This document shows positions 53,641 to 64,000 of a stretch of 64,000 bases of DNA, piece after piece. Source of the stretch: Escherichia coli (lineage in GTDB: Bacteria; Pseudomonadota; Gammaproteobacteria; Enterobacterales; Enterobacteriaceae); assembly GCF_044324785.1 (NCBI RefSeq), contig NZ_CP172127.1; one strand, written 5' to 3'. The translations under genes were made by a program, and so were the position numbers. Each line of letters begins with the position of its first letter. Positions within the stretch are counted from its first letter, which is position 1. Under the pieces are notes generated by a model that saw nothing but the letters and a program-made list of their open reading frames with translations, searched no databases and was not told where the DNA came from.

Positions 53641-55366
53641 GTGGTTCTTCCGCAACTTGGGTGGAAGAAAATGGATGAAACTTTCTGGTGAACAAGGATC
53701 TAAGCTGTTTTAAGTTATGGGCAACGCAATGCACTCTCTTAAGACACTTCTACAGTTACCTTGCGGATGGCGATGCAGTCGACAAATTATTAGCTCTGAC
53801 GGTATCACCCTCCATCTCCACGGAAAACGCAAAACAGCACAATGTCCTGAATGCTCTAAGCGTAGCGACTCTGTTCATAGTTCTCGTCGGCGCCGGATAC
53901 AGCATCTACCCTGCTCCGGGCAGACGCTATGGCTTGTATTTTCCGTCCGCCACTGGTACTGCCGTAACCCTGTTTGTTCACGAAAAATTTTTGCCGAGTC
54001 GCTTGCTCCCTTCGCCGGTTCACACCAGCAGTCTTCACAGGCGTTACAAAATTTACAACGTCAACTGGGATTAATAGCCGGAGGTGAGGCTGGAAAACGG
54101 GCTGCAACGGCAGTGGGTCTCCGTTGCAGTGCAGATACTCTTCTTCGCAGGGTTATCAATACCCCGGGGACGAAACAGTCAGGCGCGCCTCATGTCGGTA
54201 TTGATGAGTGGGCGTGGCATCGGGGCCACCGTTACGGTAAGTTAATCGTCAATCTTGATACTCACCGTCCCCTCGTCCTGCTTCCCGGTCGTGATCAGCG
54301 TACGCTGGCGACCTGGTTCAGAAAATATCCGGAAATACAGGTTGTCTCGCGTGATCGCAGTGGAGTCTATGCAACAGCAGCACGTGAAGGTGCACCTCAG
54401 GCCAGACAGGTGGCCGATCGATGGCACCTGCTAAAAAATATTGGCGATGCGCTTGAACGAATGATGTACAGACATATACCTCTGATACGTCTTGTTGCCA
54501 GTGAGTTGTCACTAAAGAAATCACCTGAGCCAGAACTGTCTGTGCCTGCAGTATCGCTCCGTCGTCCGGAACGCCTTAAACAGCAAACCCGCAAAAAACG
54601 GCATCAGCGTTGGACAGAGGTTATGGCCCTGCATAACAAGGGATGTAGTTTCAGGGAAATATCCCGTATTACAGGCCTGTCGCGTGTGACAGTCAGTCGC
54701 TGGGTGCGTTCAGGAACATTCCCTGAAATGTCAACCCGACCTCCAAAGCGAGGGCTTCTGGACCCATGGAGGGAGTGGTTAAAAGAGCAACGAGAAAGCG
54801 GTAATTATAACGCCAGCCGGATATGGCGGGAAATGGTGGCCCGGGGGTTTACAGGCAGTGAAACCATCGTCAGGGATGCTGTTGCCAAATGGCGTAAAGG
54901 CTGGATCCCACCGGTTACTACTGCCGCCAGACTTCCTTCAGTGTCCCGGGTAAGCCGGTGGTTGATGCCCTGGAGAATAATCAGGGGGGAAGAAAATTAT
55001 GCTTCCCGATTTATTAGTCTGATGTGTGAAAAAGAACCGGAGCTGAAAATAGCGCAGCAACTGGTACTCGAGTTCTACCGTATTCTGAAAACCCAAAATA
55101 AATCACAGCTTAGCAGCTGGTTCACTCGAGTCCACGAAAGCGGCTCAGCAGAACTTCGGCGCGTGGCTGCGGGGATGGAAGCTGATGCTGCGGCTATATG
55201 TGAGGCAATCAGCAGTCGCTGGAGTAATGGTGTTGTCGAAGGTCATGTAAATCGCCTGAAGATGTTGAAACGCCAGATGTATGGTCGAGCCGGATTTGAA
55301 CTGCTCAGGCAGAGGGTCATGAGTCCACTGGCATGAAAATCTCCACCCAAGTTGCGGAAGAACCAC
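53641..55366 (+). mobile_element. ISL3-family insertion sequence nested inside the IS66-like orfA
   Basis: 25-bp perfect terminal inverted repeats GTGGTTCTTCCGCAACTTGGGTGGA at 53641-53665 and, inverted, at 55342-55366; encloses a single transposase gene. Confidence 0.75.
53717..55336 (+). CDS. ISL3-family transposase
   Basis: 539 aa; N-terminal zinc-finger-like region (CGWRC...CPEC); ISL3-like architecture. The second Met at 53729 is an alternative start. Confidence 0.8.
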   Translation: MGNAMHSLKTLLQLPCGWRCSRQIISSDGITLHLHGKRKTAQCPECSKRSDSVHSSRRRRIQHLPCSGQTLWLVFSVRHWYCRNPVCSRKIFAESLAPFAGSHQQSSQALQNLQRQLGLIAGGEAGKRAATAVGLRCSADTLLRRVINTPGTKQSGAPHVGIDEWAWHRGHRYGKLIVNLDTHRPLVLLPGRDQRTLATWFRKYPEIQVVSRDRSGVYATAAREGAPQARQVADRWHLLKNIGDALERMMYRHIPLIRLVASELSLKKSPEPELSVPAVSLRRPERLKQQTRKKRHQRWTEVMALHNKGCSFREISRITGLSRVTVSRWVRSGTFPEMSTRPPKRGLLDPWREWLKEQRESGNYNASRIWREMVARGFTGSETIVRDAVAKWRKGWIPPVTTAARLPSVSRVSRWLMPWRIIRGEENYASRFISLMCEKEPELKIAQQLVLEFYRILKTQNKSQLSSWFTRVHESGSAELRRVAAGMEADAAAICEAISSRWSNGVVEGHVNRLKMLKRQMYGRAGFELLRQRVMSPLA

Positions 55367-55467
55367 TTTTCATCCGTCGTTGACACAAGAGGGCAGTATC
55401 GCTGCTCTGGCCCGTCAACATGACGTCAACGATAATCTGCTCTTTAAATGGATAAGGCTCTAGCAAC

Positions 55468-55695
55468 GTGAAGGGCGGGCGGGTCTGTCGACCCCGAAAA
55501 AATGCATCGTCGCTTCCTACCCTGATACCCGTGCAACTTCAGGCGGAGCCTTCTCTCCCGGAATTCGAACCACTATCCTGTTCACCTCCCACTGCCTGCC
55601 ACATAAAATGTCGGGGCGGAGAAATAACGCTGACCTCTCCCTCAGTTGAGCTTATGAGCACTGTCCTGCGCGAACTGATGCGGGGGTCTGTATGA
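55468..55695 (+). pseudogene. IS66-family OrfA C-terminal fragment
   Basis: 75-aa ORF ending ...LMSTVLRELMRGSV, whose stop overlaps the orfB start in the typical IS66 arrangement. Confidence 0.5.
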
Positions 55696-56057
55696 TAAAT
55701 CTTCCCGCAGGCACAAAAATCTGGCTGGTTGCCGGTATCACCGATATGCGCAACGGCTTCAATGGTCTCGCCGCAAAGGTGCAGACAGCGTTGAAAGATG
55801 ACCCGATGTCCGGCCACGTCTTCATCTTCCGGGGCCGCAGCGGCAGTCAGGTCAAACTGCTGTGGTCCACCGGCGACGGACTGTGCCTGCTGACCAAAAG
55901 GCTGGAGCGTGGCCGCTTCGCCTGGCCGTCGACCCGCGATGGCAAAGTGTTCCTGATGCCGGCGCAGCTGGCGATGCTGATGGAAGGTATCGACTGGCGA
56001 CAGCCAAAGCGGTTACTGACGTCCCTGACATGTTGTAGCCCAGGTCTTCTTCGTTGA
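55692..56057 (+). CDS. IS66-family accessory protein TnpB (OrfB)
   Basis: MINLPAGTKIWLVAGITDMRNGFNGLAAKVQTALKDDPMSGHVFIFRGRSGSQVKLLWSTGDGLCLLTKRLERGRFAWP matches the IS66 OrfB family as I recall it. Confidence 0.8.
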   Translation: MINLPAGTKIWLVAGITDMRNGFNGLAAKVQTALKDDPMSGHVFIFRGRSGSQVKLLWSTGDGLCLLTKRLERGRFAWPSTRDGKVFLMPAQLAMLMEGIDWRQPKRLLTSLTCCSPGLLR

Positions 56058-56877
56058 TAAAGTTCACATCCAGAGGATGGATACTTCCTGTAGCCCGTAA
56101 TATCGTCGATTCAATATCCTGCACATTCATCGGGATCACCGATGCAAGAAAAGCCCATTGATCAGAATAAGGCTGGAAATTAATATCAACAAAAACGCTT
56201 CCCCCCGATGCACGCGGTCTTTTTTGCAGAGGTAACGCGATAAGATTACCAAATCCTCCTTTTGGCATAGTATCCTGATTAGGAAATAATCGGTCATAAG
56301 AACTCAATTGCAGCTGTCGGGTCCGGCTGCACGTATAGCTAATAATAGCAGTCCCCAGACGGCGAGCTTCGCGGGCCGAAACTCGTGAAGCAAAAAATAT
56401 CCAGACATGCGCTCCCTGACGTGAGCGGGATATTTCCAGCGCAGCAGGTACACTCAGCTCATCACAGGCTCGCATGAACGCGGATGCATCCTTCTGCCAT
56501 TCAGCTTTATCAAAATCAACAGCCAGAAAATAACAGGAATCATCTTCCAGCAACGGATATAACCCGGCAGTATGCGTGCCTGCCAGATGCTGGTAGATGA
56601 CAAGATCAGATACAGGGAGTAACTGACGGTGCGTACAGTCCCCGCATTTTATCCGGGGTTTACCGCATATTCTCGCCTGCCATTCGTTAGCGCAGGCAGG
56701 AGAGTACCCTGATTTGCCGCTGGTTTTACTTTCCCAACGAAGGGCCCATATATCATCACGCCCACGAAACAACCGACGAAATAATGCAACCTTCTCGTCG
56801 GTGGATAATACGGAAACGCGCTGCACAGGGCTCGGCGGTTTACGTCGCCATTCCAAGTAATGAGACCAGACGGGCAT
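56058..56877 (-). pseudogene. Primase-like protein (archaeo-eukaryotic primase / prim-pol type N-terminal domain), 3'-truncated at the IS66 boundary
   Basis: Motifs LAVDFD (DxD) and RQGAHVWIFF (H-containing motif). The reading frame continues into antisense IS66 orfB sequence (to 55852), so the native C-terminus, where a helicase domain would be expected, is missing. Confidence 0.5.
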
Positions 56878-57080
56878 TTTCTGCCCTCAATGCAGCTAAT
56901 TCATCGCTGTCAGATTTATGAACCATATTCGTTACCTGTATCCGATCCACTGAGGCACCACGGCAGAAATTCGGGTCCCCTACACTGATGACAAAGCGCC
57001 CCGCCCTCTTCTGCCTATTAACTCAAGCACCTCCCAACAACTTACAGAAACTTAATTCTAATACCTAATACAGCTGTAAT

Positions 57081-57644
57081 TCAGTTGTGTCGTGGTCGGC
57101 CCCGGTTACTTTTTTCGGGAAGCCTGCTACGGCCCAGAATAATACCGTGTTCTTTCTGATCCTGTTTAGCCAGGTAGCTGAGGGCGTAACGTAAGTCGTC
57201 TACTGCGGACTTATCACTATAGTGAATCACGTGATCGATACGCACCGGGTATTTATCTTTAGCCCGGCACAGATGAAAATAACCCTCCCCTTCCGTGATC
57301 CGCCTCCAGATATCCCCCAGTTGCCTGGATATCTGATAAGAGTTCTTGTGACGTTGCCCATCCAGATAGCCGATAAAATGAATATGAAGCCCTTTGTCTG
57401 GTGTATATTCCATAACCCAGTAATATCCTGCCAACATCGTCTGGGTTTCGCTAAGTAAACGGTATATTTCCATACACATACTGTGCTTACAGGAATGCCC
57501 GAAACTGGGCGTGTCTTTCCTGTAGGCAAAATCAATTCTGAAAGGTAACAGTTTAGAAAAACGTTGAAACAATCCCTCCATGTGTTCATTCACATCTTTC
57601 AGAATCGCGAAATTCATTTCGTAATTGGGATTGGCATTATACAT
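57081..57644 (-). CDS. Inovirus Gp2-family protein (YfjJ/YagK-like), typical of CP4-57/P4-like elements
   Basis: 187 aa; resembles the YfjJ family recalled from CP4-57. Confidence 0.65.
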   Translation of the reverse strand: MYNANPNYEMNFAILKDVNEHMEGLFQRFSKLLPFRIDFAYRKDTPSFGHSCKHSMCMEIYRLLSETQTMLAGYYWVMEYTPDKGLHIHFIGYLDGQRHKNSYQISRQLGDIWRRITEGEGYFHLCRAKDKYPVRIDHVIHYSDKSAVDDLRYALSYLAKQDQKEHGIILGRSRLPEKSNRGRPRHN

Positions 57645-58775
57645 TTTATAGTCCTTAATTTATAAAACTCACAGGAAGAGGAAATTATGTAAATACTGAG
57701 AGAACATAAACGCCGTAGCACGGCATTAATAAACGAAGTAAACCAGCAGCACAGACACCCTGATAAAACTGTTTTGTATTACCGCATCGCTGTAACGAGG
57801 TAATACTTCAGAATTCAGTGAGGCTCTCTTAAACAGAGGACCAGTAAGAATTACAATGGTAAAAACACACCTCATAGAATTGAGTTTAAGGAAGCACCAT
57901 TCACTCAACCTGACATTCACAAAAGTCAGTACCAGGTGGCCTCAGGTAACATCGCTATTAATATTATCCTGCCATTAAGTAAAAACAGAAACTCTGTGAG
58001 GAAGTCTCACCAATATTTGACCAGTAGCATAAAGAATAACGATATGAGAGATACGCCCACACCAGAGATGATTACCCCATACAAAAAGATAATATTTATT
58101 AATACCACCGCACCTCAATAGACTAATAACACACTAATAGCGTTTTGGTACACACTTAACACTAACTATGCACCAGACACATACTCAGGATTAACATTCC
58201 CAACATTTATGGTACTCTCAAAGAGTATAATTCACCACACAGGTAAACTCTCACACCAGTAGTATGGAGATAATGCTGTACACATACTTACAGAGTAAAG
58301 TGTACAGTTAGCATACAGTGGCGAGCAGACATTACAACATAAAGACATAAGATAGCATAATAAGAACATAACAAAACTCCCACTAATAATACTAATTAAC
58401 CTTAATTCTTTTTTGAACAGGAAATCAACATAGCTCCAGACCTCTTCAGGTCATACACTTTTGTATTGGATGTTCAATGTGTACTTCTGCACAAACAAAA
58501 AAATAAAACCCGCAAAATAAAATATCAGCCCCAAAAATACAGCGTGAAACACCACGTTATGGATATGTTTTCATATCACCAGAAGCATATTTCACACATA
58601 CAATACAGAAACAATTCATCATATAATCAGGGTTACTGTTCACTCCTCTCGGTTATCCGCGAGACGATAAAACATGACACTAATCACAAAAACGAGAGAT
58701 AGTATTTGCGAAATATAAACAACATAAAAATCAATGCGTTGCGATTTTTTATTTTTTCAGACATGCATGCCCCCT

Positions 58776-58811
58776 CTGCTATTGTTGCTAGCCGGCTAGC
58801 AACAATAGCAG
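58776..58811. repeat. Perfect 36-bp palindrome (18-bp arms, no spacer) just downstream of the 607-aa gene
   Basis: ctgctattgttgctagcc|ggctagcaacaatagcag read directly; preceded on the plus strand by tttttatttttt. Confidence 0.7.
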
Positions 58812-58853
58812 GGATATACAAACATCGGATGCCAAAAACACGTTCCGATAATA

Positions 58854-60677
58854 TCATCGAGGATCTGACTGGTTGTTTTTAGTATCATCACCACAAATGA
58901 TGGTTAATGCGTTGTAGATCAGTCTGCGTCTGTTCTTGTTTTCAGCATTATTTCCATACAACATCATGACGTTTTTAATATCATCAACCGGTGATATTAC
59001 ATAATCAACCAATACGCCAAGCTTCTCAATACATTGCAGTAAAGTATATTTGTGTCTGCCCGTAAATAATCCTATCAGGTTTTCTTTACTTTCACGACTG
59101 GATAATATTTTGTTCTCTGTAATTAATTCAGCCAACGTTTCACCATCGTAAACACGTTCTTTATCTATCAGAATATTTATCTTATCTAACGCCCTCTCTA
59201 CATTATCAAGAAGACCTGTAATATACGGAGGCTGAATATCTGACTTTGTACTAATATTTGCAAGCATCGAATTATACATTTTAATGACACGCATCAGAGT
59301 AAAATTATTCGCATCATATTGTATTTCATCTTCATTATACGCAGGATCCGTCACGACCCTTAAGTCCATAAATGCATCCTGATAAGCTTTTACATAATCA
59401 AGTAATTCGAACAGTGAACCATGCTTTATTTTCTCCCTGTTTAATTTGATCTCCAGCGCTATCCTGAGAACTGAAAAAGCGCCGGGAAGATACCCAGAAG
59501 GTAACTCGTATTTTGGGGATTCATCATAAAACCGAAGAGCTTTGTGGAGTTTGTTCCGCCGAATCAGATAAATAAGGACGGCCAGTAACATGTAGCACCT
59601 GGTCACATAACCACGGGCATTCTGCAACTGTTCAAAATAATTAATAATGTTTTCCAGATATACATCATCATAACTTTTCTTATCAGAAAGATTAAACACC
59701 ATATCTTTTAAAGATTCGATATATTCTTGTGATTTATCATCAAGTGACACAATATAACGAGTTAATGCTCCTTTGGGGCCACTCTCAAACTCATGAAACC
59801 GTTCAAGTAATGCTCTTGCATAAGGCGTTGTGTCAAAAATATTAAAATCATAAAGATAGCGTGCAGCGTAGCCATACAACCCATGTACCCAAAGCCCTTC
59901 TCTTATCAGCACTCTGAGATAATATGCAATACTGTCAAGTATCTTTACCTTCCGTTGCATATCAAGCAAAATACTTAATGAATAAAATGCATAATAGAAC
60001 TTGTCAATGTTGTTGAGTATTCTGTCCAGCTCACTCTTATCAAGCTTCTTCTCTCTGTAATCCTTCTTGTATTCATTCTTACAGGCCTTTATATATTGTT
60101 TCATAAGGCTCTTCCTTTTACCGTACCCTTTTCGAATAGTTCCCTGGTATTTTCCCAGCTCATACATTTTTCCGTTTTCCCGAAAATCTTCTCTGTTAAA
60201 TCCCAGTTCAGCAAGATACTCCCGGAGATAACGTTTAACGGCAGCCTCATCGCTTTCTGTACCAGAGTAATCCAGGCAGGGACAATATGATTTTTGCAAA
60301 AAATTATAGATATGATAATAAAACCCTGTTTCATTCTCCGGACGATATGTGTTATATATATCCAGCACAATAAAAACAACTCCAAAGCTTTTCAGAAAAT
60401 AGTTACGGATATATTCGGACTTTAATGTTGAATACACAGGGTAAGAATTCATCATGTAATAAAAATATTCATACCGGGAAAATATAATTCGCCGTTGTTC
60501 CAGACTATACACCCCTTCAGCATCAATAATTTGACTGAGCTCATTATAACGTTGATCCCAGAATCTTTGATGCGCTCCAAAATCAGTACTCTTCCGCTTA
60601 TCTCTCGGACTCTCTCCTTCCTTAAACAACTCAAAAACTGTACAAATATCATACAAAAGATTTGTAAACATGCGCAT
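58854..60677 (-). CDS. Hypothetical protein (607 aa), no recognisable domain; AT-rich orphan gene in a P4/CP4-57-like module
   Basis: Long uninterrupted ORF in a visibly AT-rich block; Lys/Tyr/Asn/Glu-rich; no P-loop or nuclease motif identified by eye; divergently arranged with alpA. Confidence 0.6.
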   Translation of the reverse strand: MRMFTNLLYDICTVFELFKEGESPRDKRKSTDFGAHQRFWDQRYNELSQIIDAEGVYSLEQRRIIFSRYEYFYYMMNSYPVYSTLKSEYIRNYFLKSFGVVFIVLDIYNTYRPENETGFYYHIYNFLQKSYCPCLDYSGTESDEAAVKRYLREYLAELGFNREDFRENGKMYELGKYQGTIRKGYGKRKSLMKQYIKACKNEYKKDYREKKLDKSELDRILNNIDKFYYAFYSLSILLDMQRKVKILDSIAYYLRVLIREGLWVHGLYGYAARYLYDFNIFDTTPYARALLERFHEFESGPKGALTRYIVSLDDKSQEYIESLKDMVFNLSDKKSYDDVYLENIINYFEQLQNARGYVTRCYMLLAVLIYLIRRNKLHKALRFYDESPKYELPSGYLPGAFSVLRIALEIKLNREKIKHGSLFELLDYVKAYQDAFMDLRVVTDPAYNEDEIQYDANNFTLMRVIKMYNSMLANISTKSDIQPPYITGLLDNVERALDKINILIDKERVYDGETLAELITENKILSSRESKENLIGLFTGRHKYTLLQCIEKLGVLVDYVISPVDDIKNVMMLYGNNAENKNRRRLIYNALTIICGDDTKNNQSDPR

Positions 60678-60765
60678 CTGCTCTGATCTCCGGTTGGTTT
60701 CCGTTTTATCACAGGGGACATTCTGGCCTTAACGTAGCAAATTAATGACATAGCCTTCAACTCAC

Positions 60766-61026
60766 ATGGAGAACAATATGTCAACCCAGACCGGACATTT
60801 TTATACCCCCTCACGCATCCTGCGTATGGCTGAACTTACCCGACTCCTTGGTATATCAAGATCGACCATCTACGAAAAAATGAATCCGGCATCAAAATAC
60901 TACGATGCCACCTTTCCCCGGCCTGTCCGGCTTGGGAGTTCGGCTGTAGGCTGGCGGGCATCTGCCATTGATGAGTGGTTAACTTTACATACAACACCAA
61001 CCAGATCCGTAACTAAGGATAAATAA
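60766..61026 (+). CDS. alpA: AlpA-family transcriptional regulator (prophage/island excisionase-like HTH)
   Basis: LRMAELTRLLGISRSTIYEKM...FPRPVRLGSSAVGWRASAIDEW is the AlpA signature; immediately upstream of the DUF3987-like gene. Confidence 0.7.
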   Translation: MENNMSTQTGHFYTPSRILRMAELTRLLGISRSTIYEKMNPASKYYDATFPRPVRLGSSAVGWRASAIDEWLTLHTTPTRSVTKDK

Positions 61027-61041
61027 GGAAAACTGTACGCC

Positions 61042-62607
61042 ATGACAAAATTATCCCCCCCTGAACTTGACATAACTAAACTGCCTGACAGGTGCCAGGC
61101 ATTACTTGATGAAATGCATGAAGAAACGGGAATAAGCCGTGAAATACTGCTGTCTGTTATGCTGACGGTCAAGGCTGTCTCGGTCCAGGATACGCATGAA
61201 GTTGAACTTTCTGGAGGGCAGCGTACCAGTCTTCAGATATATATGTGTCTTTCATCAGCATCAGGCAGTGGAAAAACCTCTGCCTGCGCAAAATTAATCG
61301 CCCCTGTTCATGAAACAGAAGAAGAACTACATCAGGCATATATCGACGATAAAAAAAACTATGATCGCATGATGGAAATGTGGACAACAGATAAAAAAAT
61401 CCTGGAGCGGAGATATAAAAAGGAAATGGAAAGATCCCCGGAAAATGCTGCTGCTGCACGAGCAGCGCTTGAAAAGTGTATAGCAAATAAACCCGTACCT
61501 CCCGTACAACAGGTTCTCATCGTGAATGACGCGACACCAGAAGGGATAGCTTTGAAACTCAGCCAGTCACCTTCTCTTCTGTTGCTGTCTGATGAAGGAG
61601 GAACTATTCTGGATAAGCGTTTCGAACGCAAATCGGCGCTGTACAACACATTATGGAGTGGGCAACCAGTCACCGTAGAACGGGCATCCAGACCCGGGTT
61701 CCGGGTAAAGGATTCCCGTCTCACTATGCTTATACTGACTCAACCGGTAATATTTGATAAGTTTTTTACTCTCACTGGCGACCAGATCCGGGGCAATGGC
61801 TTTCTGGCCCGGGTGCTATTTTGCGAACCCGGAGCAAATAAAATAATGACGACAGAACCGCATACTGCCACTCCTGTTGTAACGCAGCAATGTGCAACCT
61901 GTTTTCATGAGAAAAGTTTTGGCAGTCAGATCAGAGACTCTCTGAGAGCGTCCCGGGAAAGGCGTGCAAAAGGTGAGCAACGCATCCGCATGACATTATC
62001 ACACGCAGCATCCCACGATCTGGAAATCTTTCACGAAGAAAATATGAGTGCTGTCAGGCAGAACCCACGTATGACCACTTTCGAAGACATTATCGTCAGG
62101 AAAAGAGAACAGGCTGTTCGAATAGCCGCACTTCTGGAGCTGGAGAACAATCCACATGGTACAGTAATAACACGAGAAAGTATCAATAGTGCTATTTATC
62201 TCGTTGATTTTTATTTTCAGCATCTTATATCCAAACTGGAATCACTTCGGGAAATATCTCCTGCAGAAAAACTGGATAAATGGCTCAGAGAAAATATCAT
62301 CCGGGTAAAAGGATACGAATATCAAAAAAGCCATATACTACAATATGGTCCATATGCTCTCAGGAATAAATGTGTTCTTGATGAAGCACTTGATATACTT
62401 GCAGAACAGAAAAAAATCGTAATTGATTATTCAATCGGCCAAAAAATCATTTATATCGGTGACGCGATTACACCTTGTGAATTAGCAAATGAGGCAAACA
62501 TCCCGATAATGGAGCGTGGAATGTTTATAGTCTGTTGGGACCATAAGCTGAATAAGTACAGAAATGAAGAACAGACTAAAATATGGAACATAACTACAAA
62601 AAATTAA
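61042..62607 (+). CDS. DUF3987-like protein (YfjI-like), typical partner of alpA in P4/CP4-57-like elements
   Basis: 521 aa; operon position after alpA as in CP4-57 (alpA-yfjI), recalled from memory. Confidence 0.65.
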   Translation: MTKLSPPELDITKLPDRCQALLDEMHEETGISREILLSVMLTVKAVSVQDTHEVELSGGQRTSLQIYMCLSSASGSGKTSACAKLIAPVHETEEELHQAYIDDKKNYDRMMEMWTTDKKILERRYKKEMERSPENAAAARAALEKCIANKPVPPVQQVLIVNDATPEGIALKLSQSPSLLLLSDEGGTILDKRFERKSALYNTLWSGQPVTVERASRPGFRVKDSRLTMLILTQPVIFDKFFTLTGDQIRGNGFLARVLFCEPGANKIMTTEPHTATPVVTQQCATCFHEKSFGSQIRDSLRASRERRAKGEQRIRMTLSHAASHDLEIFHEENMSAVRQNPRMTTFEDIIVRKREQAVRIAALLELENNPHGTVITRESINSAIYLVDFYFQHLISKLESLREISPAEKLDKWLRENIIRVKGYEYQKSHILQYGPYALRNKCVLDEALDILAEQKKIVIDYSIGQKIIYIGDAITPCELANEANIPIMERGMFIVCWDHKLNKYRNEEQTKIWNITTKN

Positions 62608-62830
62608 AGTTCCCGTCTTTTATCATTCAGTTACCAACCTGAATATCTGAAACAATGCCAGACATCGGTTACAAACTGGCATTGTTTTTATCATTCAATT
62701 TATAAACTACAATATTACGTATTATTTTTACATTTATGTCATTGCAAATATCAGACAAACAAGCATTATAACTCAATAAGTATATTTTTCGTGATTACAG
62801 ACGACATCTGCAAATCTGTGAGATGTGATT

Positions 62831-63985
62831 TCATCGCTGGTTTTCCATAATCTGAGACATCACATAATCCGCCCATGCCTGCATCATCGGTATACGCTGA
62901 TCCAGCAGATCAGTCCGGTGATATGCCGCCTCAACCTTATTTTTCAGCGTATGGGCAAGCGCCCTTTCCGCCAAATCCCGCGAATATCCCTGTTCGCTAC
63001 ACCAGTCCCTGAATGTTGAACGAAAACCATGTGCTGTAGCCACTCGTCCGGGTATATCACTGATGGCCTTCTTTTTACGCAGAAAACTCGTCAACACCAT
63101 ATCTGAAAGGATCTGCTGCTTTCTGGGAGAAGGAAACACCAGTTCGTCATGCAGACCACGTATATTTTCCAGAACGTGAATGGCCTGTCGGGATAAAGGA
63201 ACACGATGCTGTATCCTGGCTTTCATTCTTTCTGCGGGTATCGTCCATATCCGCTTATGAAAATCAATTTCAGCCCAGCGCATTCCCCTTGCTTCGCCCG
63301 AGCGGGTTGCTGTCAGTATCACCATTAATAACAGTGCCCGGGTAACATTATAAGGTTCATCTGTATACACACTGGTCGCCACAAAAAGCGGTAACTGCCT
63401 CCAGGGCATTGCCGGCTGGTGTTCATCACGTCCTCTTGATTGCTGTGGAAGCAAATGATCAACCACATCAACAGGATTCGCCACACAAAAACCATGCGCC
63501 CAGCCCCACTGCATAACAACATGAATGCGCTGTTTAACCCGGCTTGCCGTTTCTGACAAGGTTAACCAGACTGGACGCAGTGTTTCTGCCACGTCCGCAG
63601 CCGTAATCGAATCCAGCGTTTTTGCTCCCAGTTGAGGAAACGCGTAATTCTCAAGCGTCGATAACCACTGCCTTACATGCTTTGGATTTTCCCATCCAGG
63701 AGACAGTTCTGCATGTACACGCCTGGCTGCATCGGCAAATGTTGGGATAACAACTTTTTCAGCTTCAGCCTTTTTAATCTCCAGAGGATCATCACCTGCA
63801 GCAAGTTGCTCTCGCATTATCCGGGCAGTACGTGCAGCTTCAGCAATACTGACCTCAGGATAAGTTCCCAATCCAGCATTACGCCTTTTTTGTGTCACCG
63901 GACTTACATAACGAAAAACCCATTTACCCCTCCCCTTTACTGAAGAAGGATGAAGAGTCAGTCCTGTAATTCCCCCATGGGGCAA
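62831..63985 (-). CDS. int: Tyrosine recombinase / P4-type integrase (N-terminus may extend beyond the window)
   Basis: N-terminal arm-binding region (GGITGLTLHPSSVKGRGKWVFRY), AYPEVS-like motif (GTYPEVS) and C-terminal catalytic region (HGFRSTFRDW ... AYHRTDLLDQR). The ORF-track start is a TTG and the frame is still open at position 64000. Confidence 0.85.
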   Translation of the reverse strand: MPHGGITGLTLHPSSVKGRGKWVFRYVSPVTQKRRNAGLGTYPEVSIAEAARTARIMREQLAAGDDPLEIKKAEAEKVVIPTFADAARRVHAELSPGWENPKHVRQWLSTLENYAFPQLGAKTLDSITAADVAETLRPVWLTLSETASRVKQRIHVVMQWGWAHGFCVANPVDVVDHLLPQQSRGRDEHQPAMPWRQLPLFVATSVYTDEPYNVTRALLLMVILTATRSGEARGMRWAEIDFHKRIWTIPAERMKARIQHRVPLSRQAIHVLENIRGLHDELVFPSPRKQQILSDMVLTSFLRKKKAISDIPGRVATAHGFRSTFRDWCSEQGYSRDLAERALAHTLKNKVEAAYHRTDLLDQRIPMMQAWADYVMSQIMENQR

Positions 63986-64000
63986 TGGTTTGTCATCAGG

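Follow-up and report, generated by a model that had tools for sequence, protein, structure and literature searches.

A strand-skewed non-coding gap in an Escherichia coli integrative island holds a 23-nt motif that precedes Gp2-type genes in many Enterobacterales

In Pseudomonas aeruginosa, the AlpA protein binds an element between -35 and -10, after which RNA polymerase bypasses downstream intrinsic terminators (PMC7969949). Genes for a Gp2-like protein and an AlpA protein form the core of Pseudomonas islands that integrate at transfer-messenger RNA (tmRNA) genes (bioRxiv 10.1101/2024.08.29.610337). We describe here a related locus in a window of 64,000 nucleotides of E. coli contig NZ_CP172127.1. 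At this locus the window is a P4/CP4-57-like integrative island, which bears an integrase and adjoins clpA. The element under study is a gap of 1209 bp free of open reading frames (ORFs), at 57645-58853, between two minus-strand genes: a 187-aa gene of the YagK/YfjJ family, annotated 'inovirus-type Gp2 protein' (57081-57644, minus strand, hereafter the Gp2-type gene), and, upstream, a 607-aa orphan gene (58854-60677, minus strand). An earlier note had singled out 57930-58750 as a non-coding interval with an A/C-rich, G-poor plus strand; the interval is indeed non-coding, but it was drawn too narrowly. We lean towards reading the skewed stretch as a weakly constrained, probably transcribed non-coding spacer whose skew is passive. 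On sequence comparison, its sole strongly constrained element is a 23-nt motif shared by distant genera.

The plus strand of 57930-58750 contains A.393, C.216, G.139 and T.252 (A+C.609), with a GC skew of -0.216 and an AT skew of +0.219; for the whole gap the corresponding fractions are A.385, C.215, G.151 and T.248. Windows of 821 bp moved across the 64 kb had a mean A+C of.514 (sd.033) and only 0.45% of them attained.609. The highest value (.619) was found in a window beginning at 57913, within the skewed stretch. Binomial tests against the window mean gave p = 5e-8 for 57930-58750 and p = 2e-9 for the whole gap. Composition, binomial test and sliding-window profiles thus bear out the strand asymmetry. 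It had been described as a dominance of A and C with very few G; the strand is A-rich and G-poor, but C is not enriched in absolute terms (.216 versus.249 in the window), and the asymmetry consists of A exceeding T and C exceeding G. The window contains 20 ORF-free gaps of 150 bp or more; none is as skewed as this one (A+C.600, the rest ranging from.44 to.59) and just one is longer. Replication-associated skew was rejected as the cause: across the window GC skew is -0.05 and AT skew +0.01, far below the -0.17 to -0.22 and +0.22 seen here.

Both flanking genes have the minus strand as their sense strand, and there the skew shows as a surplus of T and G (T.385, G.215, A.248, C.151; T+G.600 over 57645-58853). 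The gap has nearly the same composition on this strand (A.25, C.15, G.22, T.39) as the 607-aa gene has at its third codon positions (A.25, C.13, G.22, T.40). Sense-strand T+G reaches.613 at these third positions,.647 for the integrase and.625 at the 4-fold degenerate sites of the Gp2-type gene, while two plus-strand genes are unskewed on their own sense strand (T+G.47-.49). The skew, which had been called atypical for intergenic DNA, is so within this window, but it equals the silent-site composition of the flanking genes and therefore requires no special function. It was also found (.59-.61) in eight diverged versions of the gap from other E. coli and E. albertii islands. Inside the gap it is strongest (.63) where divergence is fastest, at 57997-58385, the other parts lying between.585 and.594. 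We polarised substitutions by majority rule in 8 sequences and obtained.368 AC->TG changes per site versus.243 TG->AC changes per site (Fisher p=.013), the numbers of events being about equal (53 and 50). The equilibrium T+G implied by this pattern is.603, the same as observed. The match to silent sites, the greater skew where evolution is faster, this equilibrium value and the persistence of the skew all point to a stationary strand-biased substitution process.

According to the reading that we favour, the spacer would consist of the 3' flank of the 607-aa cargo gene (58409-58853) and a 741-nt untranslated leader, which would run on the minus strand from the promoter/operator-like motif (58386-58408) to the start codon of the Gp2-type gene (57644). 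The surplus of T and G on the sense strand common to the three units would result from strand-biased substitution acting on weakly constrained DNA. Its likeliest source would be C-to-T deamination, together with repair asymmetry, on the non-template strand of a leftward-transcribed unit, to which a small leading-strand bias would add. Transcription in E. coli raises C-to-T deamination on the non-template strand and would yield this polarity; Beletskii & Bhagwat and Francino & Ochman are both said to have described, in 1996, such a transcription-associated asymmetry with a G+T excess on the non-template strand.

Two further compositional features were noticed. The 203-bp spacer downstream of the Gp2-type gene (56878-57080) has a minus-strand T+G of.591 with G at.31, in line with a bias spanning the whole leftward unit. 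On the minus strand of the gap, the words CTGGT (8 occurrences, 1.9 expected), CTGGTG (4, 0.55 expected) and ATTAGT (5, 0.75 expected) are in modest excess; they are G/T-rich and resemble the core of Chi, and no full Chi site is present.

The gap is 100% identical to positions 2296514-2297722 of E. coli SMS-3-5 (NC_010498), where no annotation exists, and to the corresponding stretch of more than 100 further complete genomes; a literature search found nothing on this locus. Megablast and blastn searches against 5426 complete E. coli genomes located the whole gap in only about 156 of them, those that carry the 607-aa gene, while the part from the Gp2-type start codon up to 58428 is carried by about 1500. 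Homology with the widespread Gp2 module ends at 58428, 20 nt upstream of the motif. A junction at 58446 in strain J2 was discarded, since it is merely an IS3 insertion. Alignment in the sense of the Gp2-type gene revealed three zones: a proximal zone of about 350 nt, an indel-rich middle and a sharply conserved block at 58376-58408. The proximal leader (57645-57996, minus strand, T+G.585) aligns in about 1300-1500 E. coli genomes, with an identity of about 84%. Its identity among homologues (.83-.86) compares with.75-.91 at the 4-fold degenerate sites of the adjacent gene: it changes at about the rate of these sites, is no more conserved than they are and evolves near-neutrally. The middle of the leader (57997-58385, minus strand, T+G.630) is so rich in indels that only about 74% of it can be aligned even within E. 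coli. On the other side of the motif, the 3' flank of the 607-aa cargo gene (58409-58853, minus strand) has a T+G of.587, and its part beyond 58428 occurs only with that gene.

Other islands show the order AlpA with its helix-turn-helix domain, YfjI (DUF3987), a gap of 820-1010 bp, the Gp2-type gene and cargo (a TOTE primase, for instance), with every gene on the same strand. The motif and the Gp2-type ATG downstream of it are 741 nt apart in the window, 566-770 nt in the Escherichia lineage, 100-200 nt elsewhere and about 1000 nt in a metagenomic sister clade. From the 100-200 nt leaders outside Escherichia, sequence comparison indicates that the ancestral interval was short and that the long leader is a lineage-specific expansion.

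The conserved motif, TAATTAAGGTTAATTAGTATTAT (58386-58408, minus strand), may be written (G)AATTAAGGTTAATTAGTATTAT. It is an imperfect palindrome, TAATTAA-GG-TTAATTA, followed by GTATTAT, and comprises AGGTTAATT and the -10-like TATTAT. It occurs once in the window versus 0 times expected by chance. We scanned 43 Gp2-type loci from other Enterobacterales, together with further contigs, and found the core TAATTAAGGTTAATT[A/G][G/A]TATTAT on the sense strand of the gene, with 0-2 mismatches, in Citrobacter, Buttiauxella, Edaphovirga, Brenneria, Lelliottia, Serratia, Cedecea, Yersinia, Enterobacter and Erwinia, and with 4-5 mismatches in Budvicia. It thus precedes Gp2-type genes in at least 12 genera, among which the surrounding sequence is unrelated. 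Information content is high across the 23 nt and collapses on either side; A-rich sequence precedes it on the 5' side, and 5-6 nt downstream comes a weaker element, GRAGT (58376-58385). The variants at the 3' edge (TATTAT, TATAAT, TGTTAT and TGTAAT) are all close to the sigma-70 -10 sequence TATAAT. The left palindrome arm varies (TAATTTA, GAATTAA, TAATAAA, GCATTAA) without compensating change in the right arm. The earlier note had offered a regulatory region as one of several possibilities, and this suggestion is borne out in part, the stretch containing the motif, kept across Enterobacterales upstream of one gene family, and the leader of that gene. The Gp2-type/AlpA module is probably controlled from this motif. 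It would act as a promoter/operator or, less likely, as a nick site for an HUH-type protein.

The motif is absent from the paralogues of K-12: the yfjI-yfjJ gap of CP4-57 measures just 152 bp and lacks it, and yagK lacks it likewise. K-12 transcript maps are therefore not transferable to the present locus. Related TAGGTATTATATAAT and TAGGTAATATATAGG sequences lie upstream of K-12 yagK and yfjJ and are possibly a diverged form of the control site.

The protein encoded downstream of the motif displays near-invariant HxH and YxxxY motifs. Its AlphaFold2 model (predicted local distance difference test, pLDDT, 90) resembles HUH nucleases among generic ferredoxin-like folds, and a PDB sequence search with the family returned no relatives. 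With these motifs and the catalytic tyrosine present, the model points to a putative HUH Rep-like, replication-initiator-like protein. AlpA-like genes were found in 47 of the 66 fetched loci; that of the window lies at 60766-61026 (PF05930, E=7e-19, 60766-61023). In more than 40 loci a 68-aa AlpA-family gene sits about 100 nt downstream of the Gp2-type gene and is 66-88% identical across genera; the Gp2-type proteins of the same loci, 33-59% identical to that of the window, are far less conserved. This arrangement suggests that the Gp2-type gene and the 68-aa AlpA-like gene form an operon of two genes that has been conserved. Within the Escherichia lineage, alpA is located elsewhere in the island and not directly after the Gp2-type gene.

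Several results weigh against a passive spacer. The motif contains a -10-like TATTAT and yet no -35 hexamer is conserved with it: positions 17 nt upstream of its -10 are A-rich and variable, and a consensus promoter scan skipped the motif. We infer from sequence that the leader is transcribed from the motif, and infer likewise that the bias is mutational rather than selected. The polarisation of substitutions is crude, resting as it does on majority rule in 8 sequences. Codon usage also shapes third positions, and the silent-site match is thus not a pure mutational read-out. In addition, the short leaders of Gp2-family genes outside Escherichia have the opposite skew (sense-strand A+C.6-.7), yet third positions of the Gp2-type genes average T+G.53. 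Leader composition is therefore not always tied to silent sites; in this family it can be shaped by something besides silent-site drift, which keeps a functional leader in consideration. As a separate observation, in 12 loci of such islands the 100-200 nt upstream of the Gp2-type ATG have a sense-strand T+G of.28-.44, with G down to.07; these A/C-rich, G-poor short leaders would be rut-like (resembling Rho utilisation sites) or consistent with an unstructured 5' untranslated region.

RNA folding counts among these adverse points as well. The minus-strand leader RNA folds better than shuffled sequences (z=-2.96, 20 shuffles), compared with z=-1.28 for the plus-strand RNA. RNAalifold applied to 11 Escherichia-type leaders, which are only 9% divergent, gave a covariation term of -0.36 kcal/mol. 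Pairs with a compensatory change numbered 5 versus 3.9 in shuffles (161/500), which is not significant; double-change cells numbered 10 versus 4.8 (3/500, and 2/500 with the other cell measure), within the range that relatedness alone can give. Only two local helices, at 57945-57969 and 57994-58011 (minus strand), have two compensatory pairs each. A terminator-like hairpin with a weak T-tail, AATGCCGTGCTACGGCGTT (57709-57727, minus strand), lies 65 nt upstream of the ATG and has one, and a conserved hairpin or palindrome at 57776-57806 (minus strand) reads TATTACCTCATT-ACAGC-AATGAGGTAATA in most homologues. Given these few hairpins with compensatory changes, some of the local structure, in RNA or DNA, may have a function; a large structured RNA in the leader is unlikely. 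At the end of the leader, the block containing the AAGGA Shine-Dalgarno sequence and the ATG of the Gp2-type gene (57642-57656, minus strand) is identical in 11/11 Escherichia-type homologues. A sigma-70-like internal promoter, TTGAGG-18-TATTAT at 58118-58089 (minus strand), was rejected as not robust: its -10 is conserved, but two homologues have lost 6 nt from the spacer.

How far could the gap be something other than a spacer? A decayed protein-coding gene, on either strand, is very improbable. The length would suit one (about 0.8-1.2 kb), T-rich sense strands occur in membrane-protein genes and one plus-strand ORF has a weak RnlA_toxin match (E=0.05; 14 bits, where the cut-off is 27). Each frame, however, contains 16-30 stops, the five longest ORFs gave no credible match in a Pfam search, and homologues differ by indels of 1, 2 and 13 nt, which do not preserve the frame. 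The short ORFs, already suspected of being spurious, are indeed so. RefSeq annotation of about 1500 genomes places nothing, not even a pseudogene, beneath the gap match, and lineages with leaders of similar length have no intact ORF resembling it; the short interval (100-200 nt) outside Escherichia also speaks against a lost gene, the ancestral state being presumably short. The suggestion of a degenerate gene remnant thus finds no support. Hardly credible at all is a retron msr/msd, a type III antitoxin or another known defence-associated non-coding RNA, even though the island has defence-type cargo (a TOTE primase remnant here, McrB and restriction-modification genes in relatives). An Rfam scan of 56500-61000 on both strands gave 0 matches at E<=1. 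Tandem Repeats Finder at a score of at least 30 found 0 arrays, direct repeats were limited to 2-copy matches of 13-21 nt at chance level, and a search for flanking a1/a2-type inverted repeats of a retron found only short, scattered and imperfect ones. No reverse transcriptase is encoded within 10 kb, as judged from ORFs and annotation of 54000-64000, where the genes are transposases, the TOTE primase remnant, the Gp2-type gene, the 607-aa orphan, AlpA, DUF3987 and the integrase. Together with the weak covariation and the poor conservation, these results leave the structured or repetitive RNA, or retron, that had been proposed without support. Esr41 and other small RNAs of enterohaemorrhagic E. 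coli islands were also rejected as identities, Esr41 mapping to a different island (OI-43, between z1181 and z1182). The gap had no match in a phage collection, and in a plasmid collection it matched only E. coli chromosome-like 'plasmid' records.

The leader might instead be a functional long RNA. The motif would then be a promoter with an AlpA-family binding element in its spacer, the modified polymerase would pass leader terminators by antitermination of the Q/AlpA type, and the U/G-rich, C-poor composition would have been selected to escape Rho. We judge this unlikely. AlpA-family genes do belong to these islands, and the Gp2-AlpA pairing also occurs in Pseudomonas islands (bioRxiv 10.1101/2024.08.29.610337), but an antiterminator role of the E. 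coli island AlpA would hold by analogy. Conserved bases occupy the spacer just 5' of the -10-like hexamer and conservation stops at the hexamer; the motif is nevertheless unlike the Pseudomonas element GGGACGN5GGTA. Terminator-like sites are in excess (5 in 57000-59200 versus 1.2 expected) and two of them lie inside the leader on the minus strand (58064-58040 and 57727-57709), but their T-tails are weak and one has uncompensated mismatches in some homologues. The leader RNA has less C (.15) than G (.22), and the complementary strand would be rut-like, but the leader is not slower to evolve than silent sites, and the sequence in its middle is replaced or indel-ridden. The favourable fold and the two compensated hairpins are offset by the small covariation term and by compensatory pairs that do not exceed those of shuffles. 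Improbable, in our view, is an element acting at the DNA level, in which the motif would be the nick site (a rolling-circle or transfer origin) of the adjacent HUH-type protein, and the T/G-rich stretch the first displaced single strand, scarred by repeated cytosine deamination. The motif is laid out like many HUH sites, with an inverted repeat, about 7 conserved nt and an abrupt 3' loss of conservation; in all lineages the rep-like gene follows directly downstream of it, and the polarity of the skew is that expected for the motif-bearing strand. However, the left arm varies without compensation, and what is conserved is therefore not the capacity to form a hairpin. A skew that began at a nick would not be expected upstream of the motif, yet 58409-58853 (T+G.587) and the silent sites of the upstream gene show it to the same degree. 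At the motif no junction of a circular or excised form was seen, and homology breaks 20 nt upstream of it rather than at TATTAT. A broader speculation, which we regard as doubtful, would make the motif the loading or nicking site of an HUH Gp2-type plus AlpA control module at the core of widespread enterobacterial defence islands. The Escherichia leader would then be a functional barrier, either an RNA immune to Rho and studded with terminators or the DNA first exposed as a single strand after nicking, that gates island activation, and the skew would be selected or mechanistically produced.

Outside the leader, a terminator-like hairpin followed by CTGTATTTTT (58543-58556, minus strand) marks a possible 3' end of the 607-aa transcript. 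A perfect 18+18 palindrome without loop, CTGCTATTGTTGCTAGCC/GGCTAGCAACAATAGCAG (58776-58811), lies 43 nt past the stop codon of the 607-aa gene. It has no T-run on either strand, is kept in a 94%-identical homologue and, from its sequence, might serve as a protein-binding site or as a terminator of an unusual kind. A small hydrophobic ORF of 26 aa that follows the palindrome was rejected, being frameshifted in that same homologue. The 607-aa ORF itself had no Pfam, PADLOC, NCBIfam or PDB sequence match. About 156 complete E. coli genomes have its gene, which sits between alpA and the Gp2 module; relatives of the island carry defence cargo, including McrB and restriction-modification genes, and we regard it as a candidate orphan defence or cargo gene. 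On the other side of the Gp2-type gene, the gene for a TOTE conflict-system archaeo-eukaryotic primase (55852-56877, minus strand) is cut after about 341 codons by IS66-family (tnpB) and ISL3 insertions (53717-56057); in other strains an intact 786-aa TOTE primase follows the Gp2-type gene.

Taken by itself, the skewed stretch is ordinary, if extreme, weakly constrained island DNA, and recognising it as such guards against mistaking it for a retron or a large non-coding RNA. The by-product of the analysis is a cis element: a 23-nt sequence near-invariant from Escherichia to Yersinia, Serratia, Erwinia and Budvicia, which in every case precedes an uncharacterised YagK/YfjJ (HUH-like) gene that is usually paired with AlpA. 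It provides a handle on how the common integrase-AlpA-DUF3987-Gp2 islands switch on; the Escherichia version is present in about 1500 of the 5426 complete E. coli genomes, and the phage-defence cargo of such islands includes TOTE primase, McrBC and restriction-modification systems.

Compared with known systems, the locus shows partial likenesses. Its resemblance to the nick sequences of f1 (TAGTGG) and of CRESS elements (TAGTATTAC) comes down to a few AT-rich bases. The likeness of TATTAGTGG to the f1 gpII nick site and that of TAGTATTAT to the CRESS nonanucleotide were rejected as evidence, the bases being AT-rich and the TAGTGG part unconserved outside Escherichia. With the origins of HUH Rep proteins and relaxases (phiX174 gpA, f1 gpII, pC194-type plasmids, TrwC) it shares a small HUH/Y2-motif protein beside an inverted repeat with a short invariant tail and a 3' loss of conservation, but the symmetry of the palindrome is uncompensated here, and single-stranded replication or transfer of the island is only putative. 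As in AlpA/lambda-Q antitermination at P. aeruginosa alpA-PalpB (PMC7969949, PMC9371919), the element includes an AlpA gene, a conserved element beside a -10-like hexamer and terminator-like hairpins downstream; it differs by a motif unrelated to GGGACGN5GGTA, by the lack of a recognisable -35 and by weak terminators, and a similar role of AlpA would rest on analogy. The tmRNA-integrating Pseudomonas islands with a Gp2-like and AlpA core (bioRxiv 10.1101/2024.08.29.610337) have the same gene pairing, an integrase and phage-defence cargo; in Escherichia, by contrast, alpA lies elsewhere and the leader measures 566-770 nt, and no cis element has been described for the Pseudomonas islands. Finally, although a 741-nt leader plus a 445-nt 3' flank and a skew of this size are unusual for E. 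coli intergenic DNA, the gap resembles the leaders and spacers of horizontally acquired E. coli operons in being non-coding, AT-rich and co-oriented with its genes, in its sense-strand G+T excess and silent-site composition, and in its near-neutral evolution.

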